A DNA stretch of 64,000 nt from Alphaproteobacteria bacterium. GTDB lineage: Bacteria; Pseudomonadota; Alphaproteobacteria; Bin95. The notes beneath the pieces were generated by a model. That model saw only the letters and a program-made list of their open reading frames with translations. It made no database searches and was not told the origin of the DNA. The position numbers were made by a program, and so were the translations under genes. Where the stretch lies: contig OZ224045.1 in NCBI GenBank assembly GCA_963665325.3, forward strand, positions 2,016,001 to 2,080,000, read 5' to 3'. Shown here one piece after another: positions 3,528 through 64,000 of the stretch. Position 1 is the first letter of the stretch. Each line of letters begins with the position of its first letter.

Positions 3528-5043
3528 GTGTTCCGCCAGCTGAACGACACGGTCCGTTATTGGTGGACCTTGCGGCGCAAGCCGCTGGAGGCGTTCATGG
3601 AGCCGGTGGCGCTGGCCGGCGACGCACTGCTCTGCCAGGACGGCTCGCTGGTGACGCTGCTGCGCATCGAGGGCTCGCGTTCGATCACGGGCGCGCGCGA
3701 GCTCGCGCAGTTCGTGGAGCTGGCGCAGCGGCGCCTGAACGGCGGCTTTCTCGACCGGGGACATGCGCTGCATGTCATGCTGGAGCGCGCGCCGGATGCG
3801 GCGCGGGCCGCGATCGATGCCGCGGCAGGGCGCCAGCGGCGGCAGTCGGAGCGTCTCGGCCTGGCGCTGGACGATGTGATCGCGGAGCGGTCCGGGCGGC
3901 TGGCGGAGCTGCTCACGGGCGAGACGGGGGTCATGGCGTGCTGGACCCGGCCGCAAACAGTGCCCGGTCCGCAGCTCACTCGCGAGAAGAAGGAGCGGAA
4001 GAAGCAGCTGAAGGGCTGGCTTCCGGCGCTGCGGGACTCGCAGTGCCCGCTCCAGGTCGTTGACAGCCTGCCGCCGCGCCATGAGGCGTTCGTGGCGACG
4101 GTAACGTCGCTTCTCGGCGAGGCGGGGCTGATGGCGGAGCAGCTGGGCTCGCACGAGGCGGTGCGGTCGATGCGGGCGCTGTTGAACGGGCCGGACGCGG
4201 CCGGGCCGGACTGGCGGCCGGTCGGGCCCGGGGACGAGGCCTGGCCGCGGTTCACGGAGCCGCCGGAGCTGGGCTCGTTCCCGCCCCCGCTCGCGCCGCA
4301 GCTTCTGGTTCGGGAGCCTGAGGTCGAAGCGGGAGGTCTCCGGATCGGGGGCAGGCTGTACGGGGCGGTGGACATGGTGCTCGGGCCCCGCCTGGAACGG
4401 CCGTTCTCGGAGCTCATGACCAGGCTTGCGGAGGCGGATATCCCGTTCCGGTTCTCGATGGTAATCGAAGGCGGCGGGATGGCGGGTTCGGGGCCGTCGG
4501 TCGCGCTCGCGGCGGCCTCGGTGCTGGCCGTGACCTCCGAGGACAGCCGGCACGTAAGGGACGCGCTCATCGGCCTGCGGGCGGTGCGCAGCGACGAGCA
4601 GGCGGTGGTGCGGGTGCGGATCGGGTTGCTGACCTGGGTGGAGGAAGAGGAGGACGAGGCGGCTCTGGCCCGACGTCTCGGGCGCATGCAGCAGATCTGC
4701 GAGGGCTGGGGCGAGTGCGAGTTCTCGCCGCTGGTGGGGGACATCCTGGAGGCGTTTGCGGGAACGGTGCCGGGATTTGCGCTTGGCGGGACGCCGGAGC
4801 CGGCGCTGGCGCCGCTTTCGAAGGTGCTCGGCATGCTGCCGCTGTTCCGTCCGGCATCCGCGGTGAGGCCGGACCGGGCCGACTACCTCTTCCGGAGCGA
4901 GGACGGCAAGCCGCTCGGCTACAGCCTGGAGGAGAGCGGGGATTTCGGGTTCGACCTGGTTTACGGGATACCGGGGCGCGGCAAGAGCGTGCTGCTGGGC
5001 TCGCTGTCGCTGGCGTTCTGCCTGCAGGGCGGTCGCCGGCGCC
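3528..5043 (+). pseudogene. icmB: IcmB/DotO (VirB4/TraU-like ATPase), 5' part, interrupted by transposon
   Basis: Motifs DGSLVTLLRIEG, LFRSEDGK and Walker A GIPGRGKS. Joining 5043 to 9433 gives in-frame GGRRRLPLLAVVDIGPSSSGMISMIREALP, 3003 nt in total. Confidence 0.85.
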
Positions 5044-5127
5044 TGAGTGTGCTCTCGGTATCTGATGGCGGGATGGTCACGTTGTTCGATGGTTTTCAGG
5101 CGTCGGGCCGGGCGTGACGGCGGGGGT

Positions 5128-5214
5128 GTCGGACGGCCGTCGGCGCGTCAAGCCGCTTCGCGGCTCCTGCGCTGCGCTCCGGCCCTTCGGGTGACCCGCC
5201 GCCGTCCCTCCGAC
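5128..5214. other. Branched stem-loop in the transposon's non-coding end
   Basis: 5129-5151 pairs with 5191-5213 at 18 of 23 positions and encloses GCCGC-TTC-GCGGC, GCGCTGCGC and CCC-TTC-GGG mini-hairpins. Confidence 0.6.
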
Positions 5215-5289
5215 GGAGTGCATCCATGGCCGTAAGCAAGCTTCCGGCCACGGGCCGGCCGCTTTACGCAGTGTGACAATGGGAGCGGT

Positions 5290-5351
5290 GTTACCCGTTA
5301 CCGTTACCCTCTCTCCCTAGGGGTTCGAGGCGGTAACGGTTTTCGGTAACG
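5290..5351. repeat. Converging iteron-like repeats GTTACC x3 and GGTAAC x2 around palindrome CCCTAGGG
   Basis: GTTACC at 5290, 5297 and 5303. GGTAAC at 5332 and 5345. CCCTAGGG at 5315-5322 contains the helicase stop codon. Confidence 0.75.
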
Positions 5352-6315
5352 TGTCCCTGCGGTCGTTGCCGTTGAGGGCGGCGAGGCGGTATCCGCCTTC
5401 GGATGCGCGCTCGACGCGTCCTTCGCGGACGAGCCTGTGCAGCGCCTCGGCGACGGTTGCGGGCCGGGTTGCCGCGCGCTCGCGGATCCGGCGCTGGGAG
5501 AGCGGCGCGTCGGCGTCGGCGAGGGCCTGCAGGATGCGCCGTTCGGGGGTATCCGGCTCCGGCGCCTGGTCTTCCGGCGTCTCGCGCAACCGCAGGGCGG
5601 GGCGCTCGTCGTCGTCGGCGAGTTCGATCTCGAGGTCTTCGAGGCCAGGGGCGTCGCGATGCTCGACGGTCATGAGGATCTGGCGGTCTCGCCGGCGCAG
5701 GTACAGATTCGAATCGCCCCAGGCGTGAAGTTCGCTGCTGCCGCGCAGCGCCTGCCCGGGCCGGGAGCCGCCGCTCTTTCGTGCGTGATGGACGAGGAGG
5801 ACGGCGGTTTCGAAGCGGCGCTGTATGTCGCGCAGGAAGCCCAGCATGGGGGCGACCTCGGCGACGGTATTTTCGTCGACGCCGTGCAGGCGCACGAGGG
5901 GGTCGAGGACGACGAGGCGGGGTGAGACGCGCTCCACCGTCTCGACCAGGCGCTGGCGATCGGCGCGATGGTCGAGACGCAGCGTGGGCACGTCGATGAC
6001 GGCGATGTCGAGGGTCTCGAACGCGGTGCCTGCCGCCTTTGCGATGCCCTGGAGGCGTGCGCGCACGATATGGCCGGCGTCCTCGGCGGCGAACAGCAGC
6101 ACGGGGCCGCTTGCGGCGGGACGGAAGTGGCGCAGGCAGGGGACGCCGGCGGCGACCGCGACGGCGATGTCGAGTGCGAGGAAGGATTTGCCGCACTTGG
6201 GCTCGCCGCCGACGATGCCGACGCCCTGCTCGGACCACAACGCCTCGACCATCCAGCGGCGCGCCTGGGGGCGCTCTTCGAGCTCCGCCGGCGCCCGTGT
6301 CGGGAAGCCCTTCAC
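5317..6315 (-). CDS. RepA/AAA_25-like (RecA-fold) helicase/ATPase with C-terminal winged HTH, 332 aa
   Basis: GTG 6315 overlaps the upstream TGA (GTGA) and has GAGGAGG upstream. Walker A GEPKCGKS, LFAAED, LVVLDPL, LVHHARK and LRGSSELHAWGD are present. C-terminal ILQAL...LSQRRIRE...VAEALHRL...GRV resembles a wHTH. Confidence 0.8.
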   Translation of the reverse strand: MKGFPTRAPAELEERPQARRWMVEALWSEQGVGIVGGEPKCGKSFLALDIAVAVAAGVPCLRHFRPAASGPVLLFAAEDAGHIVRARLQGIAKAAGTAFETLDIAVIDVPTLRLDHRADRQRLVETVERVSPRLVVLDPLVRLHGVDENTVAEVAPMLGFLRDIQRRFETAVLLVHHARKSGGSRPGQALRGSSELHAWGDSNLYLRRRDRQILMTVEHRDAPGLEDLEIELADDDERPALRLRETPEDQAPEPDTPERRILQALADADAPLSQRRIRERAATRPATVAEALHRLVREGRVERASEGGYRLAALNGNDRRDTLPKTVTASNP

Positions 6316-7145
6316 CGCCGCGCCCTCCTCGGCTTGGCGGGTTCGCCCAGGGTCTCGATGAAGAGCTTCTCGTCGAGGACCTCGCGCTCCTTCTCGGCGG
6401 CGGCGGCGAGCAGGGCGTCGGCCATGACGGTGAGCGCCCGCGGGTTGCCGTCGGCATGGGCGACCAGGGTGTCCTTGAGGCCCGCGGTCATGAGGCCGGG
6501 ATTGCCGGCCTGCTCGATCAGATGGTCGAGCAGGGCCGCGAGGTCGCCGGCCTCGGCCTTGGTCATGACCAGGCGCTGGCGGATGCGCGAGGCGATGGGC
6601 TGCAGATCGGGCTGGCGGAGCTTGTCGAGCAGGCGCGTGTCGCCGGCGAGGACGACCGAGAGGATGGCGCGCGAGTCGAAGTCGGTCGAAGCCAGCAGGC
6701 GGATCTCGGAGAACACCGAGGGCAGCAGCTCCTGGGCCTCGTCGACGAGCACGACGGGGCGCATGCGGGTATCGTCGACATGGGCGAGCCAGCGCTCGCG
6801 CAGGCTTTTGAAGCTGGCCCAGCGGTTGTTGTACATCAGGTCGACGCCGAACATCTCGCCGATCTCGCGGTAGAAGTCGGACAGCCGGGAGGAGGGATGG
6901 GTGATGGCGGCGATGCTGAGCCCCTCGCAGCGGCCGAGACGGTCGGCGAGCAGGCGCAACGCCACACTCTTTCCGGCGCCGGGCTCGCCGGCGATCAAGG
7001 CGAAGCCGCCCTGGCGCACCAGGTGGCGCTCGATCCTGAGGCAGAAGCTGTCGACGGCAGGCGTCGCCATGAGACTGTCGACCGGCAGGTCGGTGGCGAA
7101 GGGGTTCCACTTGAGCCCGTAGAAGGTGAGCAGTTCCCGGTTCAT
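6312..7145 (-). CDS. ExeA/TnsC/MuB-like AAA+ ATPase (transposition regulator)
   Basis: YGLKWNPF, Walker A GEPGAGKS, Walker B LVDEAQ, SRI and GNPRAL. ATGA overlap with the transposase. Confidence 0.85.
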   Translation of the reverse strand: MNRELLTFYGLKWNPFATDLPVDSLMATPAVDSFCLRIERHLVRQGGFALIAGEPGAGKSVALRLLADRLGRCEGLSIAAITHPSSRLSDFYREIGEMFGVDLMYNNRWASFKSLRERWLAHVDDTRMRPVVLVDEAQELLPSVFSEIRLLASTDFDSRAILSVVLAGDTRLLDKLRQPDLQPIASRIRQRLVMTKAEAGDLAALLDHLIEQAGNPGLMTAGLKDTLVAHADGNPRALTVMADALLAAAAEKEREVLDEKLFIETLGEPAKPRRARR

Positions 7146-8617
7146 GGCGCATCTCCCCGATCTTCGTCCTCGCCCGGACCGGGCGTCTTGTCATGGGGCA
7201 GCCAGGCCGGCGGCAGGCCGGTTGCGGCCTGGGCGTCGAGCATGCCCTTGAGCAGCGGCGGAAGTTCCCCCGTCCCCGCGCCGCCATTGCCATCGTTGCC
7301 GCCGGGGCCGGCGGGACGGCGCACGCCATCGGCGTTGCCGCGCTTGTCGAGGGGGTACAGCGTGCACAGGCGCTCGCCGCCTCGACCGTCGATCAGATCG
7401 ACGCTGGCGAGGTTCCAGCGCGCGTAACGGATCCAGGCCTCGCGCAGGTGGCGCCACGGCTGTGGCACCTGGTAGCGGATGCCCTCGACCGAGACGGTGC
7501 CGTCCGAGCGCCTGAGCGTGCGCTTCCTGGTGATGCGGAAGGCCGCCTTGAGCTCGGCCGAGCCGGGGCAGGATCTCGACGCGTCGACGCTCCCGGCCAG
7601 GCGTTGATGCGGCGTCATGCCGAGCTCGCGGTGCTTGCGGCGGTGATAGTCCTGCTCCAGCCAGGCGATGGTGGCGTCGTTGAGCATCTTCAAGGTAAGC
7701 GCGTCGACGCCTTCGAGCTGAGCCATCAGGCGCGATTCGACCGTGCCCCAGAACGACTCGATCTTGCCGTTCTGATGGGGGCTGTAAGCGAGCGTCGTGA
7801 CCCCCGCGATGCCGAGCCGGTGCAACCCCTCCTCGACCTCGCCCGCGGTCATCGCCGCGCCGTTGTCGGTCAGCAGGGACCTCGGCAGACCGCGCTTCAT
7901 GAAGGCCTGGCAAAGGCCGTGGACGAACACCTCGGCGGTCTCGGCGAGGTACCACTGAAGGTGGCAGCCGAGGCGCGAGTGGTCGTCGAGGAAGCCGAGC
8001 AGGATCGGCGTCTTCCACTCGCCCGAGGCGGTCAGCACGCGACGCTTGGCGCTGTGCATGTCGGCGTGCCACAGGGCGTGAGAGCGCGAGACCTCGTAGC
8101 TCAATACCTCGCGGGCTTCGACCGCCGGCCTGGCCTCGCTCTCATGCCACTTGCGCCGGCGCTTGCGTACCAGCCCGCGAGCCCGCATCGCCCGGGTCAG
8201 CGTCGCGTAGGACGGTATCGGGCCGAGCTCGGGATCGGCCTCGACCCGCGCGGCCAGATTCTCGTGATGAAGCTGCGCCGACCACGACGGATGCGCCCGG
8301 TACTGCTCGTGCAGCGCCTCGATCAGCGTCGGCGACATCGCGCGCGGGCGCCCGGCATCGGCGCGCGGGCGCCGCTTGAGCGCCCCCACCGGATCGTTGT
8401 CCGCCGCCCGCGCCTGGTAGTACCAGCGCTCGATCGTGGACACCGCGAAGCGCACCCGGCCCTTGCCGGACGGGTGATCCCACTCGCGTTCGGCAAGCCG
8501 CTCAAGCTCGGCGTGCAGCCGCCCCGCCGGCGGCGGCGAGGCCAGAAGCGGCCCGACCACCGCGAAGCGCAACCGCGCCCACCGGTCGCGACGCTCGCTC
8601 CCGTCGTTGCTGTTCAT
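7142..8617 (-). CDS. Mu/TnsB-like DDE transposase (rve core plus Mu-type C-terminal domain)
   Basis: N-terminal HTH (STIERWYY). Triad WHAD / LTDNG / GKIESFW. C-terminal RRSDGTVSVEGIRYQVP. Confidence 0.9.
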   Translation of the reverse strand: MNSNDGSERRDRWARLRFAVVGPLLASPPPAGRLHAELERLAEREWDHPSGKGRVRFAVSTIERWYYQARAADNDPVGALKRRPRADAGRPRAMSPTLIEALHEQYRAHPSWSAQLHHENLAARVEADPELGPIPSYATLTRAMRARGLVRKRRRKWHESEARPAVEAREVLSYEVSRSHALWHADMHSAKRRVLTASGEWKTPILLGFLDDHSRLGCHLQWYLAETAEVFVHGLCQAFMKRGLPRSLLTDNGAAMTAGEVEEGLHRLGIAGVTTLAYSPHQNGKIESFWGTVESRLMAQLEGVDALTLKMLNDATIAWLEQDYHRRKHRELGMTPHQRLAGSVDASRSCPGSAELKAAFRITRKRTLRRSDGTVSVEGIRYQVPQPWRHLREAWIRYARWNLASVDLIDGRGGERLCTLYPLDKRGNADGVRRPAGPGGNDGNGGAGTGELPPLLKGMLDAQAATGLPPAWLPHDKTPGPGEDEDRGDAP

Positions 8618-8665
8618 TCCGGCATCCCCCTCGCTGCTTCGTGGAGGTGCCGATGATGCGGTGCC

Positions 8666-9280
8666 CTATCCGTGCATCATAGAAACGCTTTCTGCGGGCG
8701 AAGCCGGACCTGCGCCGAGCGCGCAAAAGCCGGTCCACGGCATCAGCCAGACCAGGCTCCGCAGCAGCCGCGAGCGGAAGCCACGGCCCCGCATGATGCG
8801 CAGCAGCCGGCGCAGCGGCGCCTCTTCGGGCGGCGCCGCCAGCTCGCCCCGTCTCGCCTGCCACTCCCGGGTCAGCGGGAAGGCTTCCAGCCACCAGCGC
8901 CGCCAGCGCTTCAGCGTCGAGGCCGGAACCCCGCACCGCCGCGCGATCGTCTGCAACCGCGCGCCGCCGGCCACAGCCAGCGCACTCACCACAAGGAACA
9001 GCGCCCCGACGTAAAAGCGCCTGCCGAAGAAACGCACCGACGGCGGCTTCACGCGGCGTCGGCACACCGAACAGCACAGGCTGAAGCGCCGAACGTCGTT
9101 CCGAAGATTCGCCGCCAGACCGTGCGGCTTGCGCGGGTAGCTCGCGCTGTGAAGCGCGCCGCCGCAGCGCGGGCAACCCGCCGCCCGGCACGCCTCCGCC
9201 TCGGCCGCGTCGACCTGCTTCAGAAAATCCCAAACCCGGGCGTTGGAGAGATTGGAGTGCCGGAACAGCTTGTGCGACAT
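8666..9280 (-). CDS. Zn-ribbon plus HTH protein (DUF6431-like), first gene of the transposon
   Basis: CPRC...H...YPR...CCSVC, then HTH TIARRCGVPASTLKRW. Conserved in all copies. Confidence 0.7.
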   Translation of the reverse strand: MSHKLFRHSNLSNARVWDFLKQVDAAEAEACRAAGCPRCGGALHSASYPRKPHGLAANLRNDVRRFSLCCSVCRRRVKPPSVRFFGRRFYVGALFLVVSALAVAGGARLQTIARRCGVPASTLKRWRRWWLEAFPLTREWQARRGELAAPPEEAPLRRLLRIMRGRGFRSRLLRSLVWLMPWTGFCALGAGPASPAESVSMMHG

Positions 9281-9432
9281 TGGGGCCGTCTCAGGTTGAT
9301 GTCACTGTCACCGAGACAAGCCCTCCGGCGGCCTTCTTGCAAGATCGCCGGGGGGCACCCAATCCAAAACCTCGATTAATCCGAGCCGATCAGCCCCTGA
9401 TCGCCGCTGAAAGCCTGCGCCCGCTCAGCGCC

Positions 9433-10919
9433 TGCCCCTGCTGGCGGTCGTCGATATCGGGCCTTCGTCCTCGGGCATGATCTCGATGATCCGCGAGGCG
9501 CTGCCGGAGGACCGGCGCTACGAGGTCGGCTGGTTCGCGCCGCAGATGACGCGCGCGCATGCGATCAATCCCTGCGACACGCAGCTCGGCTGCCGCTTTC
9601 CGCTGCCTTCGGAGCGGGCGTTCCTGACCAATCTGCTGGCGCTGATCCTGACCCCGGCCGGCGCCGCGGGCGTCCCGGACGGGGTGGCCGAGACGATCTC
9701 GCCGATGATCGGGAAGATCTACCGGATGCGCGAGGACGGCCGCCCGGGTGCGGAGCCGCATCCCTACACGAAGGGCCGCGACGCGGAAGTGGACGGGGCG
9801 CTTGAGCGCCAGGCCATTCACCTTCCGGGCTCGCCCTTGTGGTGGGAGGTGGTGGACCTGCTGTTCGACGCCGGCGAGGTGGATGCGGCCGGGCGCGCGC
9901 AGCGTTATGCGGCGCCGACGCTGCTCGATTGCCTGACGGCGGTGCGGGAGCCGGAGGTCCAGGACCTGGTGGGCAAGGCGACCTACGGCTCGGGCGGCGA
10001 GCCGGTGACGGCGGCGGTGGTGCGCATCATGACCGCGCTTTCGGGCCAGTGGCCGCTCATGTTCGAGCCGACCGCCTTCGATATCGGGCATGTCCGGGTG
10101 GCGGCGATCGACCTGGCGGCGGTGGCGCCGCAGGGCAGTCCCGAGGCGGACCGGCAGACGGCGGCGATGTACATGCTCGCCCGTCACGTGCTGACGCGGC
10201 ACTGGTGGGTCGGCGAGGAGGTGCTGGGCGAGGTCCCGGAGAAATACCGGGCCTGGCATGAGCGGCGCATTCGCGAGGTGAGGGAGACGCCGAAGCGGCT
10301 CGTGTTCGACGAGTATCACCGCACGGCCGCGGCGCCCGGGGTCCGCTCGCAGGTCGACCGCGACGTGCGCGAGGCGCGCAAGCAGCGCGTGCGGTTGATG
10401 CTGGCGTCCCAGCGCGAGGGGGATTTCGGCGACCTGGCGGAACTCGCGACCGGTTTCTGGATCCTGGGGTCGGGCGGGACAACCGAAGACGAGGCGCGCC
10501 ACCTGGCCGAGATGTTCGGGCTCGGGGACGCGGCGGTGGAAGCCATCCGGTTCCGTCTCACGGGACCGTCGCGGACGGGCGCGCCGGCGCTGCATGTCGC
10601 CAGGGACGCCGGCGGGCAGTTCGAGCAGATCCTGGTGAACTCCGTGGGACCGGTCGAACTCTGGGCTCTGAACACGGCGCCGCGCGACGTCGCGTTGCGG
10701 AACCGTGTGCAGGCACTGATCGGCGCGGCTGCTGGACGGGCAGCACTCGCGGGGATGTTCCCGTCGGGCTCCGCCAGGGACCGTGTCGAGGCACAGATCC
10801 GGGCGCTGGAAAGCCGGGGCATGGAGGCCTCGGTCGAGGAGGCGGAAATCCTGGACGAACTGGCCGAGGAAACCGTGCGCAGTGCGACGTCGCATGCGGC
10901 CGGGAGGATGGTCGCGTGA
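9433..10919 (+). pseudogene. icmB: IcmB/DotO 3' part
   Basis: INPCDTQLGCRFPLPSER.FL.NL, Walker B LVFDEYHRT, REARK..V...LASQ and GPVELWALNT are IcmB motifs. Confidence 0.85.
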
Positions 10920-21564: not shown

Positions 21565-22078
21565 TCATGGAGCGGTATCGGATTGAGGGGTTGTCCACAT
21601 GCGGGCGAGAAATTCGCGCGCTTCGAGTCCAACCGCCGTGGTGTAGATGGCTGTAGTCGAGATGTCCGCATGGCCGAGGACGGCGGCGATCGTGGGTCGT
21701 GGGACGCCGGTGGCGACGGTAGCAATTCCGAAGGAATGGTGCTGGCCCTTGGGGCATGCCTGCGGTCCGGAGATCCCGGCGCGCTCCCTGACGGCGACGA
21801 TCCGTCTGTGTCCGGTTGCCCTGGACCAGGGCCAGAGAGGTTTCCTGGCGCGTCGCGGCTGGATCGCGCGCAGGCCGTGGACGAGCTCGAGGGCGCGCAG
21901 GAGGTCGGCTGGCAGCGGGACCTCGCGCCAGTGCTCGGCGCGGCGCTTGAGCGTGCGGATCCGGATCGCGGTTACGTCCAGGTCGATATTTGCAGGGCGG
22001 AGGGCGAGAACCTCGGAGAGCCTGGCGCCGGAATGTGCGAGAGTGAGCGCGAAGGTCTGGCGATCCGACTTCCTTGGC
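21565..22078 (-). pseudogene. Decayed paralog of the tyrosine recombinase at 23128-23730
   Basis: Frame reads RQTFALTLAHSGARLSE...PKGQHHSFG...LGHADISTTAIY but has no start codon, and LRH has become QHH. Confidence 0.75.
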
Positions 22079-23127: not shown

Positions 23128-23730
23128 TCATGTCTTCAGCGGGCCGGCTGGCTCCCACATGCGCGCGAGGAACGTCCTGGCCTCGATGCCGACGGCAGTG
23201 GTGTAGATCGCGGTCGTGGCGATGTCGGCATGGCCGAGTACGGCCGCGATGGTAGGCAGCGGCACGCCGGCCGTGACGGCGGCGATGCCGAAGGCGTGGC
23301 GGAGTCCCTTGGGACATGCCTGGGGTCCGGCGATTCCGGCGCGCTCCATGACGGCGACGATGCGCCGGTGGCCGGTGGCGCGCGACCATGGCCAGAGCGG
23401 CTTGCCGGCGTGCCTGGGCGGGATGCTGCGCAGCCCGTGGACAAGTTCGAGCGCGCGCAGGGTCTCCACGGGCAGGGGGACCTCACGCCAGTGCTCGGCG
23501 CGGCGCTTGAGCGTGCGGATGCGGATCGAGGCCGCGTCCAGGTCGATGTCGGCGGACCGGAGTGCCAGCACCTCTGATAGCCTGGCGCCGGAGTGTGCGA
23601 GCGTCAGCGCGAAGGTCTGGCGTTCGGGTTTCGGCTCGCGGGCTGCGACGGCGAGGAAGCGCGTGCGTTCGGCAGCGGTCAGGTATTTGCGCCCGCGTCC
23701 GTCGACGAGCTGGATCGCGCCCAAGGCCAT
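23128..23730 (-). CDS. Small tyrosine recombinase (catalytic domain only, FimB/FimE-sized)
   Basis: RKYLT..E, GARLSE, PKGLRH, LGH and TAIY catalytic set in 200 aa. Confidence 0.85.
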   Translation of the reverse strand: MALGAIQLVDGRGRKYLTAAERTRFLAVAAREPKPERQTFALTLAHSGARLSEVLALRSADIDLDAASIRIRTLKRRAEHWREVPLPVETLRALELVHGLRSIPPRHAGKPLWPWSRATGHRRIVAVMERAGIAGPQACPKGLRHAFGIAAVTAGVPLPTIAAVLGHADIATTAIYTTAVGIEARTFLARMWEPAGPLKT

Positions 23731-37788: not shown

Positions 37789-38061
37789 TGAGTGTGCTCT
37801 CGGTATCTGATGGCGGGATGGTCACGTTGTTCGATGGTTTTCAGGCGTCGGGCCGGGCGTGACGGCGGGGGTGTCGGACGGCCGTCGGCGCGTCAAGCCG
37901 CTTCGCGGCTCCTGCGCTGCGCTCCGGCCCTTCGGGTGACCCGCCGCCGTCCCTCCGACGGAGTGCATCCATGGCCGTAAGCAAGCTTCCGGCCACGGGC
38001 CGGCCGCTTTACGCAGTGTGACAATGGGAGCGGTGTTACCCGTTACCGTTACCCTCTCTCC

Positions 38062-39060
38062 CTAGGGGTTCGAGGCGGTAACGGTTTTCGGTAACGTGTC
38101 CCTGCGGTCGTTGCCGTTGAGGGCGGCGAGGCGGTATCCGCCTTCGGATGCGCGCTCGACGCGTCCTTCGCGGACGAGCCTGTGCAGCGCCTCGGCGACG
38201 GTTGCGGGCCGGGTTGCCGCGCGCTCGCGGATCCGGCGCTGGGAGAGCGGCGCGTCGGCGTCGGCGAGGGCCTGCAGGATGCGCCGTTCGGGGGTATCCG
38301 GCTCCGGCGCCTGGTCTTCCGGCGTCTCGCGCAACCGCAGGGCGGGGCGCTCGTCGTCGTCGGCGAGTTCGATCTCGAGGTCTTCGAGGCCAGGGGCGTC
38401 GCGATGCTCGACGGTCATGAGGATCTGGCGGTCTCGCCGGCGCAGGTACAGATTCGAATCGCCCCAGGCGTGAAGTTCGCTGCTGCCGCGCAGCGCCTGC
38501 CCGGGCCGGGAGCCGCCGCTCTTTCGTGCGTGATGGACGAGGAGGACGGCGGTTTCGAAGCGGCGCTGTATGTCGCGCAGGAAGCCCAGCATGGGGGCGA
38601 CCTCGGCGACGGTATTTTCGTCGACGCCGTGCAGGCGCACGAGGGGGTCGAGGACGACGAGGCGGGGTGAGACGCGCTCCACCGTCTCGACCAGGCGCTG
38701 GCGATCGGCGCGATGGTCGAGACGCAGCGTGGGCACGTCGATGACGGCGATGTCGAGGGTCTCGAACGCGGTGCCTGCCGCCTTTGCGATGCCCTGGAGG
38801 CGTGCGCGCACGATATGGCCGGCGTCCTCGGCGGCGAACAGCAGCACGGGGCCGCTTGCGGCGGGACGGAAGTGGCGCAGGCAGGGGACGCCGGCGGCGA
38901 CCGCGACGGCGATGTCGAGTGCGAGGAAGGATTTGCCGCACTTGGGCTCGCCGCCGACGATGCCGACGCCCTGCTCGGACCACAACGCCTCGACCATCCA
39001 GCGGCGCGCCTGGGGGCGCTCTTCGAGCTCCGCCGGCGCCCGTGTCGGGAAGCCCTTCAC
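38062..39060 (-). CDS. RepA/AAA_25-like helicase-wHTH (copy 2)
   Basis: Translation identical to 5317-6315. Confidence 0.8.
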   Translation of the reverse strand: MKGFPTRAPAELEERPQARRWMVEALWSEQGVGIVGGEPKCGKSFLALDIAVAVAAGVPCLRHFRPAASGPVLLFAAEDAGHIVRARLQGIAKAAGTAFETLDIAVIDVPTLRLDHRADRQRLVETVERVSPRLVVLDPLVRLHGVDENTVAEVAPMLGFLRDIQRRFETAVLLVHHARKSGGSRPGQALRGSSELHAWGDSNLYLRRRDRQILMTVEHRDAPGLEDLEIELADDDERPALRLRETPEDQAPEPDTPERRILQALADADAPLSQRRIRERAATRPATVAEALHRLVREGRVERASEGGYRLAALNGNDRRDTLPKTVTASNP

Positions 39061-39890
39061 CGCCGCGCCCTCCTCGGCTTGGCGGGTTCGCCCAGGGTCT
39101 CGATGAAGAGCTTCTCGTCGAGGACCTCGCGCTCCTTCTCGGCGGCGGCGGCGAGCAGGGCGTCGGCCATGACGGTGAGCGCCCGCGGGTTGCCGTCGGC
39201 ATGGGCGACCAGGGTGTCCTTGAGGCCCGCGGTCATGAGGCCGGGATTGCCGGCCTGCTCGATCAGATGGTCGAGCAGGGCCGCGAGGTCGCCGGCCTCG
39301 GCCTTGGTCATGACCAGGCGCTGGCGGATGCGCGAGGCGATGGGCTGCAGATCGGGCTGGCGGAGCTTGTCGAGCAGGCGCGTGTCGCCGGCGAGGACGA
39401 CCGAGAGGATGGCGCGCGAGTCGAAGTCGGTCGAAGCCAGCAGGCGGATCTCGGAGAACACCGAGGGCAGCAGCTCCTGGGCCTCGTCGACGAGCACGAC
39501 GGGGCGCATGCGGGTATCGTCGACATGGGCGAGCCAGCGCTCGCGCAGGCTTTTGAAGCTGGCCCAGCGGTTGTTGTACATCAGGTCGACGCCGAACATC
39601 TCGCCGATCTCGCGGTAGAAGTCGGACAGCCGGGAGGAGGGATGGGTGATGGCGGCGATGCTGAGCCCCTCGCAGCGGCCGAGACGGTCGGCGAGCAGGC
39701 GCAACGCCACACTCTTTCCGGCGCCGGGCTCGCCGGCGATCAAGGCGAAGCCGCCCTGGCGCACCAGGTGGCGCTCGATCCTGAGGCAGAAGCTGTCGAC
39801 GGCAGGCGTCGCCATGAGACTGTCGACCGGCAGGTCGGTGGCGAAGGGGTTCCACTTGAGCCCGTAGAAGGTGAGCAGTTCCCGGTTCAT
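39057..39890 (-). CDS. ExeA/TnsC-like AAA+ ATPase (copy 2)
   Basis: Translation identical to 6312-7145. Confidence 0.85.
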   Translation of the reverse strand: MNRELLTFYGLKWNPFATDLPVDSLMATPAVDSFCLRIERHLVRQGGFALIAGEPGAGKSVALRLLADRLGRCEGLSIAAITHPSSRLSDFYREIGEMFGVDLMYNNRWASFKSLRERWLAHVDDTRMRPVVLVDEAQELLPSVFSEIRLLASTDFDSRAILSVVLAGDTRLLDKLRQPDLQPIASRIRQRLVMTKAEAGDLAALLDHLIEQAGNPGLMTAGLKDTLVAHADGNPRALTVMADALLAAAAEKEREVLDEKLFIETLGEPAKPRRARR

Positions 39891-41362
39891 GGCGCATCTC
39901 CCCGATCTTCGTCCTCGCCCGGACCGGGCGTCTTGTCATGGGGCAGCCAGGCCGGCGGCAGGCCGGTTGCGGCCTGGGCGTCGAGCATGCCCTTGAGCAG
40001 CGGCGGAAGTTCCCCCGTCCCCGCGCCGCCATTGCCATCGTTGCCGCCGGGGCCGGCGGGACGGCGCACGCCATCGGCGTTGCCGCGCTTGTCGAGGGGG
40101 TACAGCGTGCACAGGCGCTCGCCGCCTCGACCGTCGATCAGATCGACGCTGGCGAGGTTCCAGCGCGCGTAACGGATCCAGGCCTCGCGCAGGTGGCGCC
40201 ACGGCTGTGGCACCTGGTAGCGGATGCCCTCGACCGAGACGGTGCCGTCCGAGCGCCTGAGCGTGCGCTTCCTGGTGATGCGGAAGGCCGCCTTGAGCTC
40301 GGCCGAGCCGGGGCAGGATCTCGACGCGTCGACGCTCCCGGCCAGGCGTTGATGCGGCGTCATGCCGAGCTCGCGGTGCTTGCGGCGGTGATAGTCCTGC
40401 TCCAGCCAGGCGATGGTGGCGTCGTTGAGCATCTTCAAGGTAAGCGCGTCGACGCCTTCGAGCTGAGCCATCAGGCGCGATTCGACCGTGCCCCAGAACG
40501 ACTCGATCTTGCCGTTCTGATGGGGGCTGTAAGCGAGCGTCGTGACCCCCGCGATGCCGAGCCGGTGCAACCCCTCCTCGACCTCGCCCGCGGTCATCGC
40601 CGCGCCGTTGTCGGTCAGCAGGGACCTCGGCAGACCGCGCTTCATGAAGGCCTGGCAAAGGCCGTGGACGAACACCTCGGCGGTCTCGGCGAGGTACCAC
40701 TGAAGGTGGCAGCCGAGGCGCGAGTGGTCGTCGAGGAAGCCGAGCAGGATCGGCGTCTTCCACTCGCCCGAGGCGGTCAGCACGCGACGCTTGGCGCTGT
40801 GCATGTCGGCGTGCCACAGGGCGTGAGAGCGCGAGACCTCGTAGCTCAATACCTCGCGGGCTTCGACCGCCGGCCTGGCCTCGCTCTCATGCCACTTGCG
40901 CCGGCGCTTGCGTACCAGCCCGCGAGCCCGCATCGCCCGGGTCAGCGTCGCGTAGGACGGTATCGGGCCGAGCTCGGGATCGGCCTCGACCCGCGCGGCC
41001 AGATTCTCGTGATGAAGCTGCGCCGACCACGACGGATGCGCCCGGTACTGCTCGTGCAGCGCCTCGATCAGCGTCGGCGACATCGCGCGCGGGCGCCCGG
41101 CATCGGCGCGCGGGCGCCGCTTGAGCGCCCCCACCGGATCGTTGTCCGCCGCCCGCGCCTGGTAGTACCAGCGCTCGATCGTGGACACCGCGAAGCGCAC
41201 CCGGCCCTTGCCGGACGGGTGATCCCACTCGCGTTCGGCAAGCCGCTCAAGCTCGGCGTGCAGCCGCCCCGCCGGCGGCGGCGAGGCCAGAAGCGGCCCG
41301 ACCACCGCGAAGCGCAACCGCGCCCACCGGTCGCGACGCTCGCTCCCGTCGTTGCTGTTCAT
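39887..41362 (-). CDS. Mu-like DDE transposase (copy 2)
   Basis: Translation identical to 7142-8617. Confidence 0.9.
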   Translation of the reverse strand: MNSNDGSERRDRWARLRFAVVGPLLASPPPAGRLHAELERLAEREWDHPSGKGRVRFAVSTIERWYYQARAADNDPVGALKRRPRADAGRPRAMSPTLIEALHEQYRAHPSWSAQLHHENLAARVEADPELGPIPSYATLTRAMRARGLVRKRRRKWHESEARPAVEAREVLSYEVSRSHALWHADMHSAKRRVLTASGEWKTPILLGFLDDHSRLGCHLQWYLAETAEVFVHGLCQAFMKRGLPRSLLTDNGAAMTAGEVEEGLHRLGIAGVTTLAYSPHQNGKIESFWGTVESRLMAQLEGVDALTLKMLNDATIAWLEQDYHRRKHRELGMTPHQRLAGSVDASRSCPGSAELKAAFRITRKRTLRRSDGTVSVEGIRYQVPQPWRHLREAWIRYARWNLASVDLIDGRGGERLCTLYPLDKRGNADGVRRPAGPGGNDGNGGAGTGELPPLLKGMLDAQAATGLPPAWLPHDKTPGPGEDEDRGDAP

Positions 41363-41410
41363 TCCGGCATCCCCCTCGCTGCTTCGTGGAGGTGCCGATG
41401 ATGCGGTGCC

Positions 41411-42025
41411 CTATCCGTGCATCATAGAAACGCTTTCTGCGGGCGAAGCCGGACCTGCGCCGAGCGCGCAAAAGCCGGTCCACGGCATCAGCCAGACCAG
41501 GCTCCGCAGCAGCCGCGAGCGGAAGCCACGGCCCCGCATGATGCGCAGCAGCCGGCGCAGCGGCGCCTCTTCGGGCGGCGCCGCCAGCTCGCCCCGTCTC
41601 GCCTGCCACTCCCGGGTCAGCGGGAAGGCTTCCAGCCACCAGCGCCGCCAGCGCTTCAGCGTCGAGGCCGGAACCCCGCACCGCCGCGCGATCGTCTGCA
41701 ACCGCGCGCCGCCGGCCACAGCCAGCGCACTCACCACAAGGAACAGCGCCCCGACGTAAAAGCGCCTGCCGAAGAAACGCACCGACGGCGGCTTCACGCG
41801 GCGTCGGCACACCGAACAGCACAGGCTGAAGCGCCGAACGTCGTTCCGAAGATTCGCCGCCAGACCGTGCGGCTTGCGCGGGTAGCTCGCGCTGTGAAGC
41901 GCGCCGCCGCAGCGCGGGCAACCCGCCGCCCGGCACGCCTCCGCCTCGGCCGCGTCGACCTGCTTCAGAAAATCCCAAACCCGGGCGTTGGAGAGATTGG
42001 AGTGCCGGAACAGCTTGTGCGACAT
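41411..42025 (-). CDS. Zn-ribbon/HTH protein (copy 2)
   Basis: Translation identical to 8666-9280. Confidence 0.7.
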   Translation of the reverse strand: MSHKLFRHSNLSNARVWDFLKQVDAAEAEACRAAGCPRCGGALHSASYPRKPHGLAANLRNDVRRFSLCCSVCRRRVKPPSVRFFGRRFYVGALFLVVSALAVAGGARLQTIARRCGVPASTLKRWRRWWLEAFPLTREWQARRGELAAPPEEAPLRRLLRIMRGRGFRSRLLRSLVWLMPWTGFCALGAGPASPAESVSMMHG

Positions 42026-42177
42026 TGGGGCCGTCTCAGGTTGATGTCACTGTCACCGAGACAAGCCCTCCGGCGGCCTTCTTGCAAGATCGCCGGGGGG
42101 CACCCAATCCAAAACCTCGATTAATCCGAGCCGATCAGCCCCTGATCGCCGCTGAAAGCCTGCGCCCGCTCACGAGG

Positions 42178-59951: not shown

Positions 59952-60224
59952 TGAGTGTGCTCTCGGTATCTGATGGCGGGATGGTCACGTTGTTCGATGG
60001 TTTTCAGGCGTCGGGCCGGGCGTGACGGCGGGGGTGTCGGACGGCCGTCGGCGCGTCAAGCCGCTTCGCGGCTCCTGCGCTGCGCTCCGGCCCTTCGGGT
60101 GACCCGCCGCCGTCCCTCCGACGGAGTGCATCCATGGCCGTAAGCAAGCTTCCGGCCACGGGCCGGCCGCTTTACGCAGTGTGACAATGGGAGCGGTGTT
60201 ACCCGTTACCGTTACCCTCTCTCC

Positions 60225-61223
60225 CTAGGGGTTCGAGGCGGTAACGGTTTTCGGTAACGTGTCCCTGCGGTCGTTGCCGTTGAGGGCGGCGAGGCGGTAT
60301 CCGCCTTCGGATGCGCGCTCGACGCGTCCTTCGCGGACGAGCCTGTGCAGCGCCTCGGCGACGGTTGCGGGCCGGGTTGCCGCGCGCTCGCGGATCCGGC
60401 GCTGGGAGAGCGGCGCGTCGGCGTCGGCGAGGGCCTGCAGGATGCGCCGTTCGGGGGTATCCGGCTCCGGCGCCTGGTCTTCCGGCGTCTCGCGCAACCG
60501 CAGGGCGGGGCGCTCGTCGTCGTCGGCGAGTTCGATCTCGAGGTCTTCGAGGCCAGGGGCGTCGCGATGCTCGACGGTCATGAGGATCTGGCGGTCTCGC
60601 CGGCGCAGGTACAGATTCGAATCGCCCCAGGCGTGAAGTTCGCTGCTGCCGCGCAGCGCCTGCCCGGGCCGGGAGCCGCCGCTCTTTCGTGCGTGATGGA
60701 CGAGGAGGACGGCGGTTTCGAAGCGGCGCTGTATGTCGCGCAGGAAGCCCAGCATGGGGGCGACCTCGGCGACGGTATTTTCGTCGACGCCGTGCAGGCG
60801 CACGAGGGGGTCGAGGACGACGAGGCGGGGTGAGACGCGCTCCACCGTCTCGACCAGGCGCTGGCGATCGGCGCGATGGTCGAGACGCAGCGTGGGCACG
60901 TCGATGACGGCGATGTCGAGGGTCTCGAACGCGGTGCCTGCCGCCTTTGCGATGCCCTGGAGGCGTGCGCGCACGATATGGCCGGCGTCCTCGGCGGCGA
61001 ACAGCAGCACGGGGCCGCTTGCGGCGGGACGGAAGTGGCGCAGGCAGGGGACGCCGGCGGCGACCGCGACGGCGATGTCGAGTGCGAGGAAGGATTTGCC
61101 GCACTTGGGCTCGCCGCCGACGATGCCGACGCCCTGCTCGGACCACAACGCCTCGACCATCCAGCGGCGCGCCTGGGGGCGCTCTTCGAGCTCCGCCGGC
61201 GCCCGTGTCGGGAAGCCCTTCAC
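60225..61223 (-). CDS. RepA/AAA_25-like helicase-wHTH (copy 3)
   Basis: Translation identical to copy 1. Confidence 0.8.
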   Translation of the reverse strand: MKGFPTRAPAELEERPQARRWMVEALWSEQGVGIVGGEPKCGKSFLALDIAVAVAAGVPCLRHFRPAASGPVLLFAAEDAGHIVRARLQGIAKAAGTAFETLDIAVIDVPTLRLDHRADRQRLVETVERVSPRLVVLDPLVRLHGVDENTVAEVAPMLGFLRDIQRRFETAVLLVHHARKSGGSRPGQALRGSSELHAWGDSNLYLRRRDRQILMTVEHRDAPGLEDLEIELADDDERPALRLRETPEDQAPEPDTPERRILQALADADAPLSQRRIRERAATRPATVAEALHRLVREGRVERASEGGYRLAALNGNDRRDTLPKTVTASNP

Positions 61224-62053
61224 CGCCGCGCCCTCCTCGGCTTGGCGGGTTCGCCCAGGGTCTCGATGAAGAGCTTCTCGTCGAGGACCTCGCGCTCCTT
61301 CTCGGCGGCGGCGGCGAGCAGGGCGTCGGCCATGACGGTGAGCGCCCGCGGGTTGCCGTCGGCATGGGCGACCAGGGTGTCCTTGAGGCCCGCGGTCATG
61401 AGGCCGGGATTGCCGGCCTGCTCGATCAGATGGTCGAGCAGGGCCGCGAGGTCGCCGGCCTCGGCCTTGGTCATGACCAGGCGCTGGCGGATGCGCGAGG
61501 CGATGGGCTGCAGATCGGGCTGGCGGAGCTTGTCGAGCAGGCGCGTGTCGCCGGCGAGGACGACCGAGAGGATGGCGCGCGAGTCGAAGTCGGTCGAAGC
61601 CAGCAGGCGGATCTCGGAGAACACCGAGGGCAGCAGCTCCTGGGCCTCGTCGACGAGCACGACGGGGCGCATGCGGGTATCGTCGACATGGGCGAGCCAG
61701 CGCTCGCGCAGGCTTTTGAAGCTGGCCCAGCGGTTGTTGTACATCAGGTCGACGCCGAACATCTCGCCGATCTCGCGGTAGAAGTCGGACAGCCGGGAGG
61801 AGGGATGGGTGATGGCGGCGATGCTGAGCCCCTCGCAGCGGCCGAGACGGTCGGCGAGCAGGCGCAACGCCACACTCTTTCCGGCGCCGGGCTCGCCGGC
61901 GATCAAGGCGAAGCCGCCCTGGCGCACCAGGTGGCGCTCGATCCTGAGGCAGAAGCTGTCGACGGCAGGCGTCGCCATGAGACTGTCGACCGGCAGGTCG
62001 GTGGCGAAGGGGTTCCACTTGAGCCCGTAGAAGGTGAGCAGTTCCCGGTTCAT
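61220..62053 (-). CDS. ExeA/TnsC-like AAA+ ATPase (copy 3)
   Basis: Translation identical to copy 1. Confidence 0.85.
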   Translation of the reverse strand: MNRELLTFYGLKWNPFATDLPVDSLMATPAVDSFCLRIERHLVRQGGFALIAGEPGAGKSVALRLLADRLGRCEGLSIAAITHPSSRLSDFYREIGEMFGVDLMYNNRWASFKSLRERWLAHVDDTRMRPVVLVDEAQELLPSVFSEIRLLASTDFDSRAILSVVLAGDTRLLDKLRQPDLQPIASRIRQRLVMTKAEAGDLAALLDHLIEQAGNPGLMTAGLKDTLVAHADGNPRALTVMADALLAAAAEKEREVLDEKLFIETLGEPAKPRRARR

Positions 62054-63525
62054 GGCGCATCTCCCCGATCTTCGTCCTCGCCCGGACCGGGCGTCTTGTC
62101 ATGGGGCAGCCAGGCCGGCGGCAGGCCGGTTGCGGCCTGGGCGTCGAGCATGCCCTTGAGCAGCGGCGGAAGTTCCCCCGTCCCCGCGCCGCCATTGCCA
62201 TCGTTGCCGCCGGGGCCGGCGGGACGGCGCACGCCATCGGCGTTGCCGCGCTTGTCGAGGGGGTACAGCGTGCACAGGCGCTCGCCGCCTCGACCGTCGA
62301 TCAGATCGACGCTGGCGAGGTTCCAGCGCGCGTAACGGATCCAGGCCTCGCGCAGGTGGCGCCACGGCTGTGGCACCTGGTAGCGGATGCCCTCGACCGA
62401 GACGGTGCCGTCCGAGCGCCTGAGCGTGCGCTTCCTGGTGATGCGGAAGGCCGCCTTGAGCTCGGCCGAGCCGGGGCAGGATCTCGACGCGTCGACGCTC
62501 CCGGCCAGGCGTTGATGCGGCGTCATGCCGAGCTCGCGGTGCTTGCGGCGGTGATAGTCCTGCTCCAGCCAGGCGATGGTGGCGTCGTTGAGCATCTTCA
62601 AGGTAAGCGCGTCGACGCCTTCGAGCTGAGCCATCAGGCGCGATTCGACCGTGCCCCAGAACGACTCGATCTTGCCGTTCTGATGGGGGCTGTAAGCGAG
62701 CGTCGTGACCCCCGCGATGCCGAGCCGGTGCAACCCCTCCTCGACCTCGCCCGCGGTCATCGCCGCGCCGTTGTCGGTCAGCAGGGACCTCGGCAGACCG
62801 CGCTTCATGAAGGCCTGGCAAAGGCCGTGGACGAACACCTCGGCGGTCTCGGCGAGGTACCACTGAAGGTGGCAGCCGAGGCGCGAGTGGTCGTCGAGGA
62901 AGCCGAGCAGGATCGGCGTCTTCCACTCGCCCGAGGCGGTCAGCACGCGACGCTTGGCGCTGTGCATGTCGGCGTGCCACAGGGCGTGAGAGCGCGAGAC
63001 CTCGTAGCTCAATACCTCGCGGGCTTCGACCGCCGGCCTGGCCTCGCTCTCATGCCACTTGCGCCGGCGCTTGCGTACCAGCCCGCGAGCCCGCATCGCC
63101 CGGGTCAGCGTCGCGTAGGACGGTATCGGGCCGAGCTCGGGATCGGCCTCGACCCGCGCGGCCAGATTCTCGTGATGAAGCTGCGCCGACCACGACGGAT
63201 GCGCCCGGTACTGCTCGTGCAGCGCCTCGATCAGCGTCGGCGACATCGCGCGCGGGCGCCCGGCATCGGCGCGCGGGCGCCGCTTGAGCGCCCCCACCGG
63301 ATCGTTGTCCGCCGCCCGCGCCTGGTAGTACCAGCGCTCGATCGTGGACACCGCGAAGCGCACCCGGCCCTTGCCGGACGGGTGATCCCACTCGCGTTCG
63401 GCAAGCCGCTCAAGCTCGGCGTGCAGCCGCCCCGCCGGCGGCGGCGAGGCCAGAAGCGGCCCGACCACCGCGAAGCGCAACCGCGCCCACCGGTCGCGAC
63501 GCTCGCTCCCGTCGTTGCTGTTCAT
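62050..63525 (-). CDS. Mu-like DDE transposase (copy 3)
   Basis: Translation identical to copy 1. Confidence 0.9.
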   Translation of the reverse strand: MNSNDGSERRDRWARLRFAVVGPLLASPPPAGRLHAELERLAEREWDHPSGKGRVRFAVSTIERWYYQARAADNDPVGALKRRPRADAGRPRAMSPTLIEALHEQYRAHPSWSAQLHHENLAARVEADPELGPIPSYATLTRAMRARGLVRKRRRKWHESEARPAVEAREVLSYEVSRSHALWHADMHSAKRRVLTASGEWKTPILLGFLDDHSRLGCHLQWYLAETAEVFVHGLCQAFMKRGLPRSLLTDNGAAMTAGEVEEGLHRLGIAGVTTLAYSPHQNGKIESFWGTVESRLMAQLEGVDALTLKMLNDATIAWLEQDYHRRKHRELGMTPHQRLAGSVDASRSCPGSAELKAAFRITRKRTLRRSDGTVSVEGIRYQVPQPWRHLREAWIRYARWNLASVDLIDGRGGERLCTLYPLDKRGNADGVRRPAGPGGNDGNGGAGTGELPPLLKGMLDAQAATGLPPAWLPHDKTPGPGEDEDRGDAP

Positions 63526-63573
63526 TCCGGCATCCCCCTCGCTGCTTCGTGGAGGTGCCGATGATGCGGTGCC

Positions 63574-64000
63574 CTATCCGTGCATCATAGAAACGCTTTC
63601 TGCGGGCGAAGCCGGACCTGCGCCGAGCGCGCAAAAGCCGGTCCACGGCATCAGCCAGACCAGGCTCCGCAGCAGCCGCGAGCGGAAGCCACGGCCCCGC
63701 ATGATGCGCAGCAGCCGGCGCAGCGGCGCCTCTTCGGGCGGCGCCGCCAGCTCGCCCCGTCTCGCCTGCCACTCCCGGGTCAGCGGGAAGGCTTCCAGCC
63801 ACCAGCGCCGCCAGCGCTTCAGCGTCGAGGCCGGAACCCCGCACCGCCGCGCGATCGTCTGCAACCGCGCGCCGCCGGCCACAGCCAGCGCACTCACCAC
63901 AAGGAACAGCGCCCCGACGTAAAAGCGCCTGCCGAAGAAACGCACCGACGGCGGCTTCACGCGGCGTCGGCACACCGAACAGCACAGGCTGAAGCGCCGA
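63574..64000 (-). CDS. Zn-ribbon/HTH protein (copy 3), 5' end outside the window
   Basis: Matches the C-terminal part of 8666-9280. Confidence 0.7.
   Translation of the reverse strand, partial: RRFSLCCSVCRRRVKPPSVRFFGRRFYVGALFLVVSALAVAGGARLQTIARRCGVPASTLKRWRRWWLEAFPLTREWQARRGELAAPPEEAPLRRLLRIMRGRGFRSRLLRSLVWLMPWTGFCALGAGPASPAESVSMMHG

Follow-up and report, generated by a model that had tools for sequence, protein, structure and literature searches.

This study concerns a transposon in a 64,000-nucleotide stretch of an Alphaproteobacteria bacterium genome (assembly GCA_963665325.3, contig OZ224045.1, positions 2,016,001 to 2,080,000 of the forward strand), hereafter called the window. Positions are counted from its first letter, and those given on the scale of the genome carry a contig name such as C1. 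The window holds three copies of a 4,384-bp unit with four genes, and our main result is that the fourth gene, three short direct repeats behind it and a folded element of ~150 nt make up a module that is common to two transposon lineages. The copies and the features of the first of them are:

5044..9427, minus strand: transposon copy 1, complete, 4,384 bp, genes on the minus strand, ends TGAG...CTCA
8666..9280, minus strand: gene 1, 204 amino acids (aa), Cys4 Zn-ribbon plus HTH_23 (Pfam E 3.4e-6)
7142..8617, minus strand: gene 2, DDE transposase of 491 aa, IS481-like, with rve, rve_3 and HTH_32 all below the Pfam cut-offs
6312..7145, minus strand: gene 3, AAA_22 ATPase of 277 aa (E 5e-20), of the MuB/TniB-like target-DNA activator type
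5317..6315, minus strand: gene 4, 332 aa, GTG start, RSF1010-RepA-like RecA-fold ATPase (AAA_25, E 4.6e-36) with a C-terminal winged helix (winged helix-turn-helix, wHTH, families); GTGA overlap with gene 3
5290..5309, minus strand: three direct GG(G)TAAC repeats just after the gene 4 stop, GGGTAAC GGTAAC GGGTAAC
5125..5272, minus strand: structured element of ~150 nt, a hairpin and a long stem closing a four-way junction, core GUCACCCGAAGGGCCGnAGCGnAGCGnAGGAG-hairpin-CUUGAC (alifold)
5039..5043, no strand: target-site duplication GCGCC to the left of copy 1, repeated at its right side (9428-9432)
9428..9432, no strand: target-site duplication GCGCC to the right of copy 1, read in the flank
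37789..42172, minus strand: transposon copy 2, same sequence as copy 1, CGAGG on both flanks
59952..64000, minus strand: transposon copy 3, running past the window end to C1:2080335, GCGT flanks

Genes 1 and 2 are separated by 48 bp. Genes 2/3 and 3/4 overlap in ATGA and GTGA, just as read in the first-pass annotation of the window, whose domain calls for the four proteins were also correct by Pfam. It had further called the transposase Mu-like, and here the models disagree: the top NCBIfam insertion sequence (IS) model for gene 2 is IS481 (NF033577), subthreshold at 123.9 bits against a cut-off of 224, no Mu-transpos_C domain was found with Pfam or NCBIfam, and the nearest solved sequences are retroviral integrase cores, matched weakly. 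A profile of 42 relatives of gene 3 matches MuB ('target DNA activator B', 8xvb, E 3.6e-7). The inverted repeats are short, only the 9-bp imperfect TGAGyGkGC, and neither TniQ nor resolvase domains were found in the four element proteins (Pfam, NCBIfam), which bears out the short ends and the lack of a resolvase noted before. Within the terminal 300 bp there are no repeated subterminal words (k=8) apart from the GGTAAC triplet.

The earlier view that the architecture matches no named family did not hold for the first three genes. Genes 1, 2 and 3 are 40% (E 3e-30), 50.4% and 52% identical to the corresponding genes of Tn6049 on pHS87a, with order and overlap kept. The P. aeruginosa pHS87a copy is named Tn6049 by its authors in the available part of their report (PMC4739549) and encodes a 181-aa 'transposase', a DDE transposase, a 277-aa AAA ATPase and a 90-aa hypothetical protein; a relative on the Paraburkholderia PsJN plasmid (pBPHYT01) has the same layout with a fourth open reading frame (ORF) of 71 aa. 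A tblastn search of PLSDB with gene 2 gave 21 records covering >=80% of it, all at 49-50% identity and all from Cupriavidus, Paraburkholderia or P. aeruginosa pHS87a. Those of the matches that have an annotated feature are labelled 'IS481 family transposase' or DDE-type integrase, and the NCBI label for the Tn6049 transposase is likewise IS481 family. In the sections available, Tn6049 is described as 3.5 kb long, present in 12 copies in Cupriavidus metallidurans CH34, often found in genomic islands and always carrying a 'gspA-like' ATPase (PMC2864759), with 12-bp imperfect TG..CA inverted repeats and a 4-bp duplication taken from one copy (PMC4739549). Our element resembles Tn6049 in the first three genes, their order, the gene 2/3 overlap and the multi-copy state, and broadly, without full agreement, in the TG...CA ends, the short imperfect inverted repeats and the short duplications. 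It differs in length (4,384 bp vs. 3.5 kb), in duplications of 4-5 bp vs. 4 bp, in ends that read TGAG.. instead of TGTGC.. and, above all, in its fourth gene, which has 332 codons where Tn6049 has 90 (71 in PsJN). The folded element is another difference, as its covariance model (see below) found no match in two Tn6049 loci. The small fourth ORFs of Tn6049 and of the PsJN relative have no similarity to gene 4, and the idea that the Tn6049 ORF is a remnant of the gene 4 winged helix was rejected, since there is neither similarity nor a Pfam match. Genes 1 to 3 place the element in the Tn6049 lineage, with which the ends are broadly in keeping, and gene 4 stands in place of the small ORF. The core is known but barely studied, with no mechanistic work on the lineage found in the literature searched, and the gene 4 module is the new part. 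ISArsp16 (4,338 bp, TGAGAATGCTC... ends), known to us by its description in part of PMC6305408 only, may be a relative. A plasmid megablast with the whole element as query gave no match.

Gene 4 appears from its sequence and predicted fold to be a RepA-type ATPase with predicted helicase activity. A profile of 72 relatives finds RSF1010 RepA (1g8y, E 7.9e-18) and, weakly, DnaB, and in the alignment with RepA the blocks around the Walker A lysine, AED, LDP/LDT, HHxxK and RGSS correspond. Across the 72 sequences K43, E78, D138, R142, E148, R191 and R220 are invariant and HH176-177 is invariant or nearly so. The AlphaFold (AF2) model has a predicted local distance difference test score (pLDDT) of 91, and Foldseek ranks RepA, DnaB, RadA and Rad51-type proteins highest, RepA having a template modelling (TM) score of 0.77 (target-normalised, E 7e-12). 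A winged helix of the MarR/IclR/GntR type makes up the last ~75 residues. Values of dN/dS for gene 4 (0.24-0.44) cover the same range as for genes 2 and 3, and by this measure gene 4 seems to be under purifying selection similar to that on the transposase. Prediction of a complex between the products of genes 3 and 4 scored 0.00 in two runs, which is not evidence either way.

Relatives of gene 4 are abundant, with >7,800 in the protein collection and 489 cluster representatives at E<=1e-30. The best 120 of the >7,800 are 72-100% identical to it (72-86% without the window's own protein), and the few of these 120 with a named source come from Chloroflexota, Rhodospirillales and Gemmatimonadetes. 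A scan of species-representative genomes returned 80 gene 4 loci, many from few genomes (at least 47 from one Alphaproteobacteria metagenome-assembled genome, MAG), in MAGs labelled Alphaproteobacteria, Chloroflexota, Dehalococcoidia, Acidimicrobiales and Acidobacteria. Among these 80 loci an AAA_22 gene lies directly upstream of gene 4 wherever the contig extends that far, and a DDE gene lies upstream wherever it is reached, so that within the helicase-bearing clades the linkage of gene 4 is invariant. The first-pass annotation had regarded gene 4 as a core gene and not cargo, and had proposed surveying genomes for how often it is the fourth gene. The tight coupling agrees with this, as gene 4 follows the AAA_22 gene in all of the 80 loci where the contig shows it; the claim is nevertheless too strong, because gene 4 is missing from Tn6049 and from all of its relatives in PLSDB. 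Two observations that the annotation had itself named as telling against its reading, a described relative and relatives without the helicase (at ~50% identity), were thus made in part, yet the linkage does not vary where the helicase is present.

The gene 4 loci belong to two classes. In class A, genes 1 to 3 are 63-91% identical to those of this element, whereas in class B the transposase (28-29%) and the ATPase (25-28%) are remote and gene 1 is not detectable. Gene 4, in contrast, is 69-81% identical to ours in both classes alike. At the DNA level the similarity between class A and class B (78-80%) covers only gene 4 and ~195 bp downstream, and breaks off ~80 bp short of the right end. Direct reading showed the 4-bp start/stop overlap for this element, for 11/11 class A loci checked and for 1 class B locus (GTG start). 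Since the similarity is limited to gene 4 and the sequence behind it, and the coupled position is the same, the block has evidently moved between two transposon lineages. One class B element (L094:2973-7352) is 4,380 bp long with TGTTGT..ACAACA ends and 4-5 bp duplications, and is present in many copies in one MAG; the class B transposase has a Mu-transpos_C domain. The same MAG contains class A as well as class B elements, in dozens of copies. Outside such elements gene 4 is rare, with 1 weak match among 400 further genomes of the class, no match in the genome from the same genus, 4 weak matches in PLSDB and only 6 distant relatives (26-48% identity) in viral contigs. The combination of a DDE transposon and a RepA-type ATPase with a wHTH domain, with or without Toprim, was not found described in the literature searched, a provisional result as ISfinder and TnCentral were not covered.

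The region downstream of gene 4 was compared in 24 distinct gene 4 loci, that is, this element and 23 others (L076, cut by a contig end, was left out; L104 and L112 are copies from one MAG):

13 of 24 loci: folded element downstream of gene 4
8 of 24 loci: 289-aa gene with DUF3991 and Toprim_2 in the same place, without the folded element (L061, L069, L072, L073, L090, L093, L104, L112)
1 of 24 loci: neither folded element nor Toprim gene (L071)
1 of 24 loci: weak, displaced match to the folded element only (L063)
1 of 24 loci: region cut by a contig end (L064)

The Toprim gene lies, for example, at L112:7102-7971 and L061:5719-6591, and the five-gene class A sister transposon, ~5.2 kb in length, ends ~100 bp past it. 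That the RepA-type ATPase is followed by either a primase-type protein or the folded element favours a role in replication or priming over one in target choice.

Between elements the units of the direct repeats vary in concert, reading GGTAAC, GGAAAC or GGGAAC, and GGAACC in class B, and some elements additionally have an inverted repeat triplet; we infer that the GGTAAC repeats are iteron-like. The folded element is better conserved than the coding sequence, with 89% mean column identity over classes A and B. A covariance model was built from 12 transposon copies, and scanning with a 24-nt core pattern gave at least 119 metagenome stretches, 80 of which were analyzed; the model matched 65 places in these 80. 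In the resulting alignment 93.2% of cells are paired, vs. 25-45% in slid controls, and changes on both sides occur in 38 of 48 pairs; none of 500 shuffles reaches the observed values. The alignment was fitted to the model, which favours structure, but the margin is very wide. G-U pairs outnumber A-C pairs by 84:28, which favours the gene strand as the folded one. The sequence of the outer stem differs between examples yet stays paired, which fits a functional structure and not conserved terminal repeats; the element was therefore rejected as a miniature inverted-repeat transposable element (MITE) or terminal repeat. No Rfam match (4,227 models) at E<=1 was obtained in 5000-9500, nor did the element give one in any of 12 diverse metagenome examples. 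A subthreshold match to the Acido-Lenti-1 RNA was seen at L125:5145-5190 (minus strand; 28.6 bits vs. a gathering cut-off of 37, E 0.0098), unrelated to the folded element.

Within this genome the core of the folded element is confined to the 24 transposon copies, and elsewhere it is found in many kinds of surroundings. A neighbour survey covered 18 hand-chosen ORFs from a crude gene caller based on G+C content at third codon positions (GC3), and is illustrative and not a count. The neighbours identified include transposases of the IS110 (2), IS30-like (HTH_38+rve, 3) and ISL3 (3) types, a TrwC relaxase and a DUF736 protein, together with a type I restriction R subunit and ordinary genes; two proteins with only a helix-turn-helix (HTH) domain we take to be IS630-like. 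Several such mobile-DNA contexts involve single-stranded or newly copied DNA. In a comparison of L191 and L140, 99.7% identity begins 5 nt before the core, as if insertion or recombination had taken place there. The accessible part of a preprint (10.64898/2026.10.21.760802) mentions an uncharacterised motif upstream of DUF736 genes, which may or may not be the same element.

The element has been active recently and reached 24 copies here in a burst. Sequence comparison in the window showed no difference between copies 1 and 2 across all 4,384 bp, and the 4,049 bp of copy 3 inside the window are all identical to copy 1, in agreement with the three copies first reported. The whole genome (5 contigs, 5.58 Mb) holds 23 full-length copies and 1 interrupted copy, with some on every contig, and all are 100% identical except two, each with a 1-bp deletion. 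In a public run (X2) one contig joins 5038 to 9428 and omits 4,389 bp; as this is exactly the element (4,384) and one 5-bp repeat, it shows the site still empty in a related strain and sets the element boundaries. The recent activity proposed earlier is confirmed by these near-identical copies and the empty site. The 5-bp duplications were correct for copies 1 and 2 (GCGCC, CGAGG) and cannot be generalized: of the 24 copies, 10 have a 5-bp duplication, 8 a 4-bp one and 2 apparently a 6-bp one, so that overall it is 4-5 bp, not strictly 5. The flanks do not match in the remaining 4, of which 1 has a mismatch, 1 an extra base and 2 are swapped reciprocally. These two (C2:25283-29666 and C4:930514-934897), in which the left flank of one equals the right flank of the other (4 and 5 bp), suggest either that copies on different contigs have recombined or that a cointegrate was formed in the past. 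The interrupted copy (C1:2290596-2297053) carries a 2,074-bp insertion, probably another IS, at element position 274-277, at the gene 4 stop codon, and its two pieces overlap by 4 bp. RNA run X17 contains contigs that are 90-99% like the genes and the folded element; such libraries may hold DNA, and this was not taken as proof of expression.

The long plus-strand ORF that copy 1 interrupts (3528-5043 and 9477-10919) has a Walker A-like GIPGRGKS immediately ahead of the insertion point, and no Pfam match was obtained for either half. The target sequences of the insertions have no consensus beyond GC richness. Cumulative GC skew along the genome contigs has no V shape, and replichores are not assignable. 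Copy 2 is bracketed at a distance by direct repeats (37209-37508 and 42692-42991, 95% identical), and a second pair, 76% identical, lies at 21595-21894 and 23155-23454 of the window. Short fragments at C1:446362-446548 and C1:452255-452348 match the right end of the element and part of the folded-element region at 81-86% identity; they are probably what is left of a related element.

What could the module do? We give about an even chance to the reading that it is a replication or priming unit serving transposition, counted together with the variant in which the transposon becomes a mini-replicon for a time. On this reading the winged helix of gene 4 would bind the GGTAAC repeats and load the ring ATPase onto the element. 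Lying on the displaced gene strand, and here near the 3' end of that strand, the folded element would act as a single-strand initiation or priming signal, a job that the DUF3991-Toprim primase-type protein may do in the sister elements. The module could then complete DNA synthesis for copy-out or replicative transposition without waiting for host restart proteins, and a self-supplied synthesis step would favour rapid gain of copies. The copy burst and the absence of a resolvase fit copy-out as well as replicative events resolved by the host, and prove neither. A bolder and rather doubtful version would have the element as a DDE transposon with a minimal origin-like module, consisting of an initiator-helicase fusion, iteron-like repeats and a priming signal or its own Toprim primase, which makes the DNA-synthesis step self-sufficient; the folded element would then be a new, widespread single-strand initiation signal (or an RNA) common to IS110, IS30-like, ISL3 and IS630-like elements and to relaxase and DUF736 regions.

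Several observations weigh against the proposed replication or priming role. Tn6049 and the PLSDB relatives are without gene 4, from which it follows that the family transposes without it, and three genomes at the level of the class (one of them, G240, unpublished) with transposase relatives at 50-57% identity likewise gave no gene 4 match. At the metagenome loci with the folded-element core a tblastn match to gene 4 was found in only 4 of 80, 2 of these being short fragments; the folded element is thus mostly without gene 4 elsewhere, and at least 8 gene 4 loci are without the element, so it was rejected as an obligate partner of gene 4. Its orientation to neighbouring transposases is not uniform, and a single priming geometry does not explain all contexts. 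A single-stranded DNA (ssDNA) promoter of the Frpo type was considered and rejected for this element: TTGAC is conserved, but a TA ~17-18 nt downstream is present in only ~1/3 of 59 distinct examples and not in the subclass of this element, where the TTGAC has no -10 box behind it. Neither a RepC-like initiator nor an AT-rich stretch was identified. In a further public run (X1) contig depth, a crude measure, is ~580-610 inside the element and 22-25 in the flanks; the ratio of ~24-27 is close to the 24 genomic copies, with no sign of extra free copies. Finally, we know of no solved or tested example of such a module.

This depth ratio, which chromosomal copies account for, and the missing RepC-type initiator also bear on the mini-replicon variant, in which an excised circle would be copied in the IncQ style, starting at the repeats and the folded element, before it reintegrates. 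The IncQ plasmid RSF1010 has a RepA helicase, a primase, iterons and single-strand initiation (ssi) hairpins, and the parallel lies in the RepA-like protein, the repeats and the folded element or Toprim gene seen here. Related DDE families are also described as making circles (IS30, PMC9333248; IEE preprint 10.1101/2023.06.07.543989; each in the part available). Four public runs yielded no end-to-end joint of the element among the joints listed; contigs cannot show rare forms, and nothing was concluded from this. By itself we consider this variant quite improbable. A module without any role in transposition, be it left over from plasmid or island replication or a hitch-hiking cargo with a defence or anti-defence function of use to the host or against other mobile DNA, is unlikely but has to be taken seriously, given the Tn6049-type relatives that do without gene 4, the exchange of the module as a block between two transposon lineages, the wide occurrence of the folded element without gene 4, and the fact that nothing ties the gene 3 and gene 4 proteins physically, the complex prediction having given no verdict. 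A mere passenger would, on the other hand, hardly be expected to keep a fixed position and a 4-bp overlap in two lineages, with selection on gene 4 that appears as strong as on the transposase; moreover, 0 of 80 gene 4 loci are without transposon genes where the contig reaches, and the gene is rare outside elements.

Quite improbable too, in our view, is that gene 4 acts as a target selector or regulator, an analogue of TniQ, TnsD or TnsE that would sense forks, ssDNA or conjugating DNA by its ring ATPase and winged helix and pass the target to the AAA+ protein. Gene 4 does occupy the place of the selector in Tn7 and Tn5053, directly after the AAA+ gene with a 4-bp overlap, and it has a wHTH domain of a DNA-binding type. 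Furthermore, 8 of the 24 copies fall within the ~120 kb around copy 1, a region that is very strongly GC-skewed, but any IS commonly clusters in dispensable mobile DNA. An orientation bias of the TnsE type was rejected, as the element strand agreed with the GC skew of the masked flanks in 17-18/24 copies of this genome, 21/39 class A copies in MAGs and 8/28 class B copies, the last in the opposite sense, which amounts to no consistent bias. The lack of a target consensus beyond GC richness and the intact RepA sequence blocks in gene 4 also speak against a selector, which moreover leaves the Toprim gene and the folded element travelling with gene 4 unexplained.

The element can also be compared with known systems. 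With Mu A/B, Tn7 TnsB/TnsC, Tn5053 TniA/TniB and IS21 IstA/IstB the element shares a DDE transposase with a MuB-like AAA+ partner and TG..CA ends; a transposase with Mu-transpos_C is shared with Mu, Tn7 and Tn5053 by the class B sisters only. Unlike these three, the element has no C-terminal domain of the Mu/TnsB type, no subterminal site arrays (8-mers, terminal 300 bp), no TniQ/TnsD/TnsE or resolvase, and a duplication that is not fixed at 5 bp. The likeness of gene 4 to RSF1010 RepA extends from sequence blocks and fold to the short direct repeats and the folded element (or, in sisters, the primase-type gene) nearby, whereas gene 4 adds a C-terminal winged helix, RepC was not found, and the setting is a transposon and not a plasmid origin. 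The RSF1010 primase RepB' is of a different type from DUF3991-Toprim. Another helicase and primase-type protein, IEE, acts on IS that make circles; it is not known to be encoded inside the IS acted upon. As the available text of the preprint describes it, IEE joins an AEP PrimPol to a helicase domain of the UvsW-like (DEAD/DEAH-box) type and promotes excision (10.1101/2023.06.07.543989). Its sequence class is unrelated to gene 4.

How replicative and copy-out transposons recruit replication machinery has largely been inferred from Mu and IS911, where host restart proteins act. A lineage in which a RepA-type ATPase, accompanied in sister elements by a Toprim protein, is in fixed linkage to the AAA+ partner would, if the replication or priming role is true, be a natural system that encodes this step itself. 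The lineage is ecologically successful, with 24 copies here, at least 47 of the 80 loci in one MAG, members in several phyla and >7,800 relatives of gene 4. Few unannotated structures are as well supported as the folded element; it occurs in many kinds of mobile DNA, which makes its function a question in its own right. Taken together, our results suggest that a Tn6049-related element brings along part of its own DNA-copying machinery.

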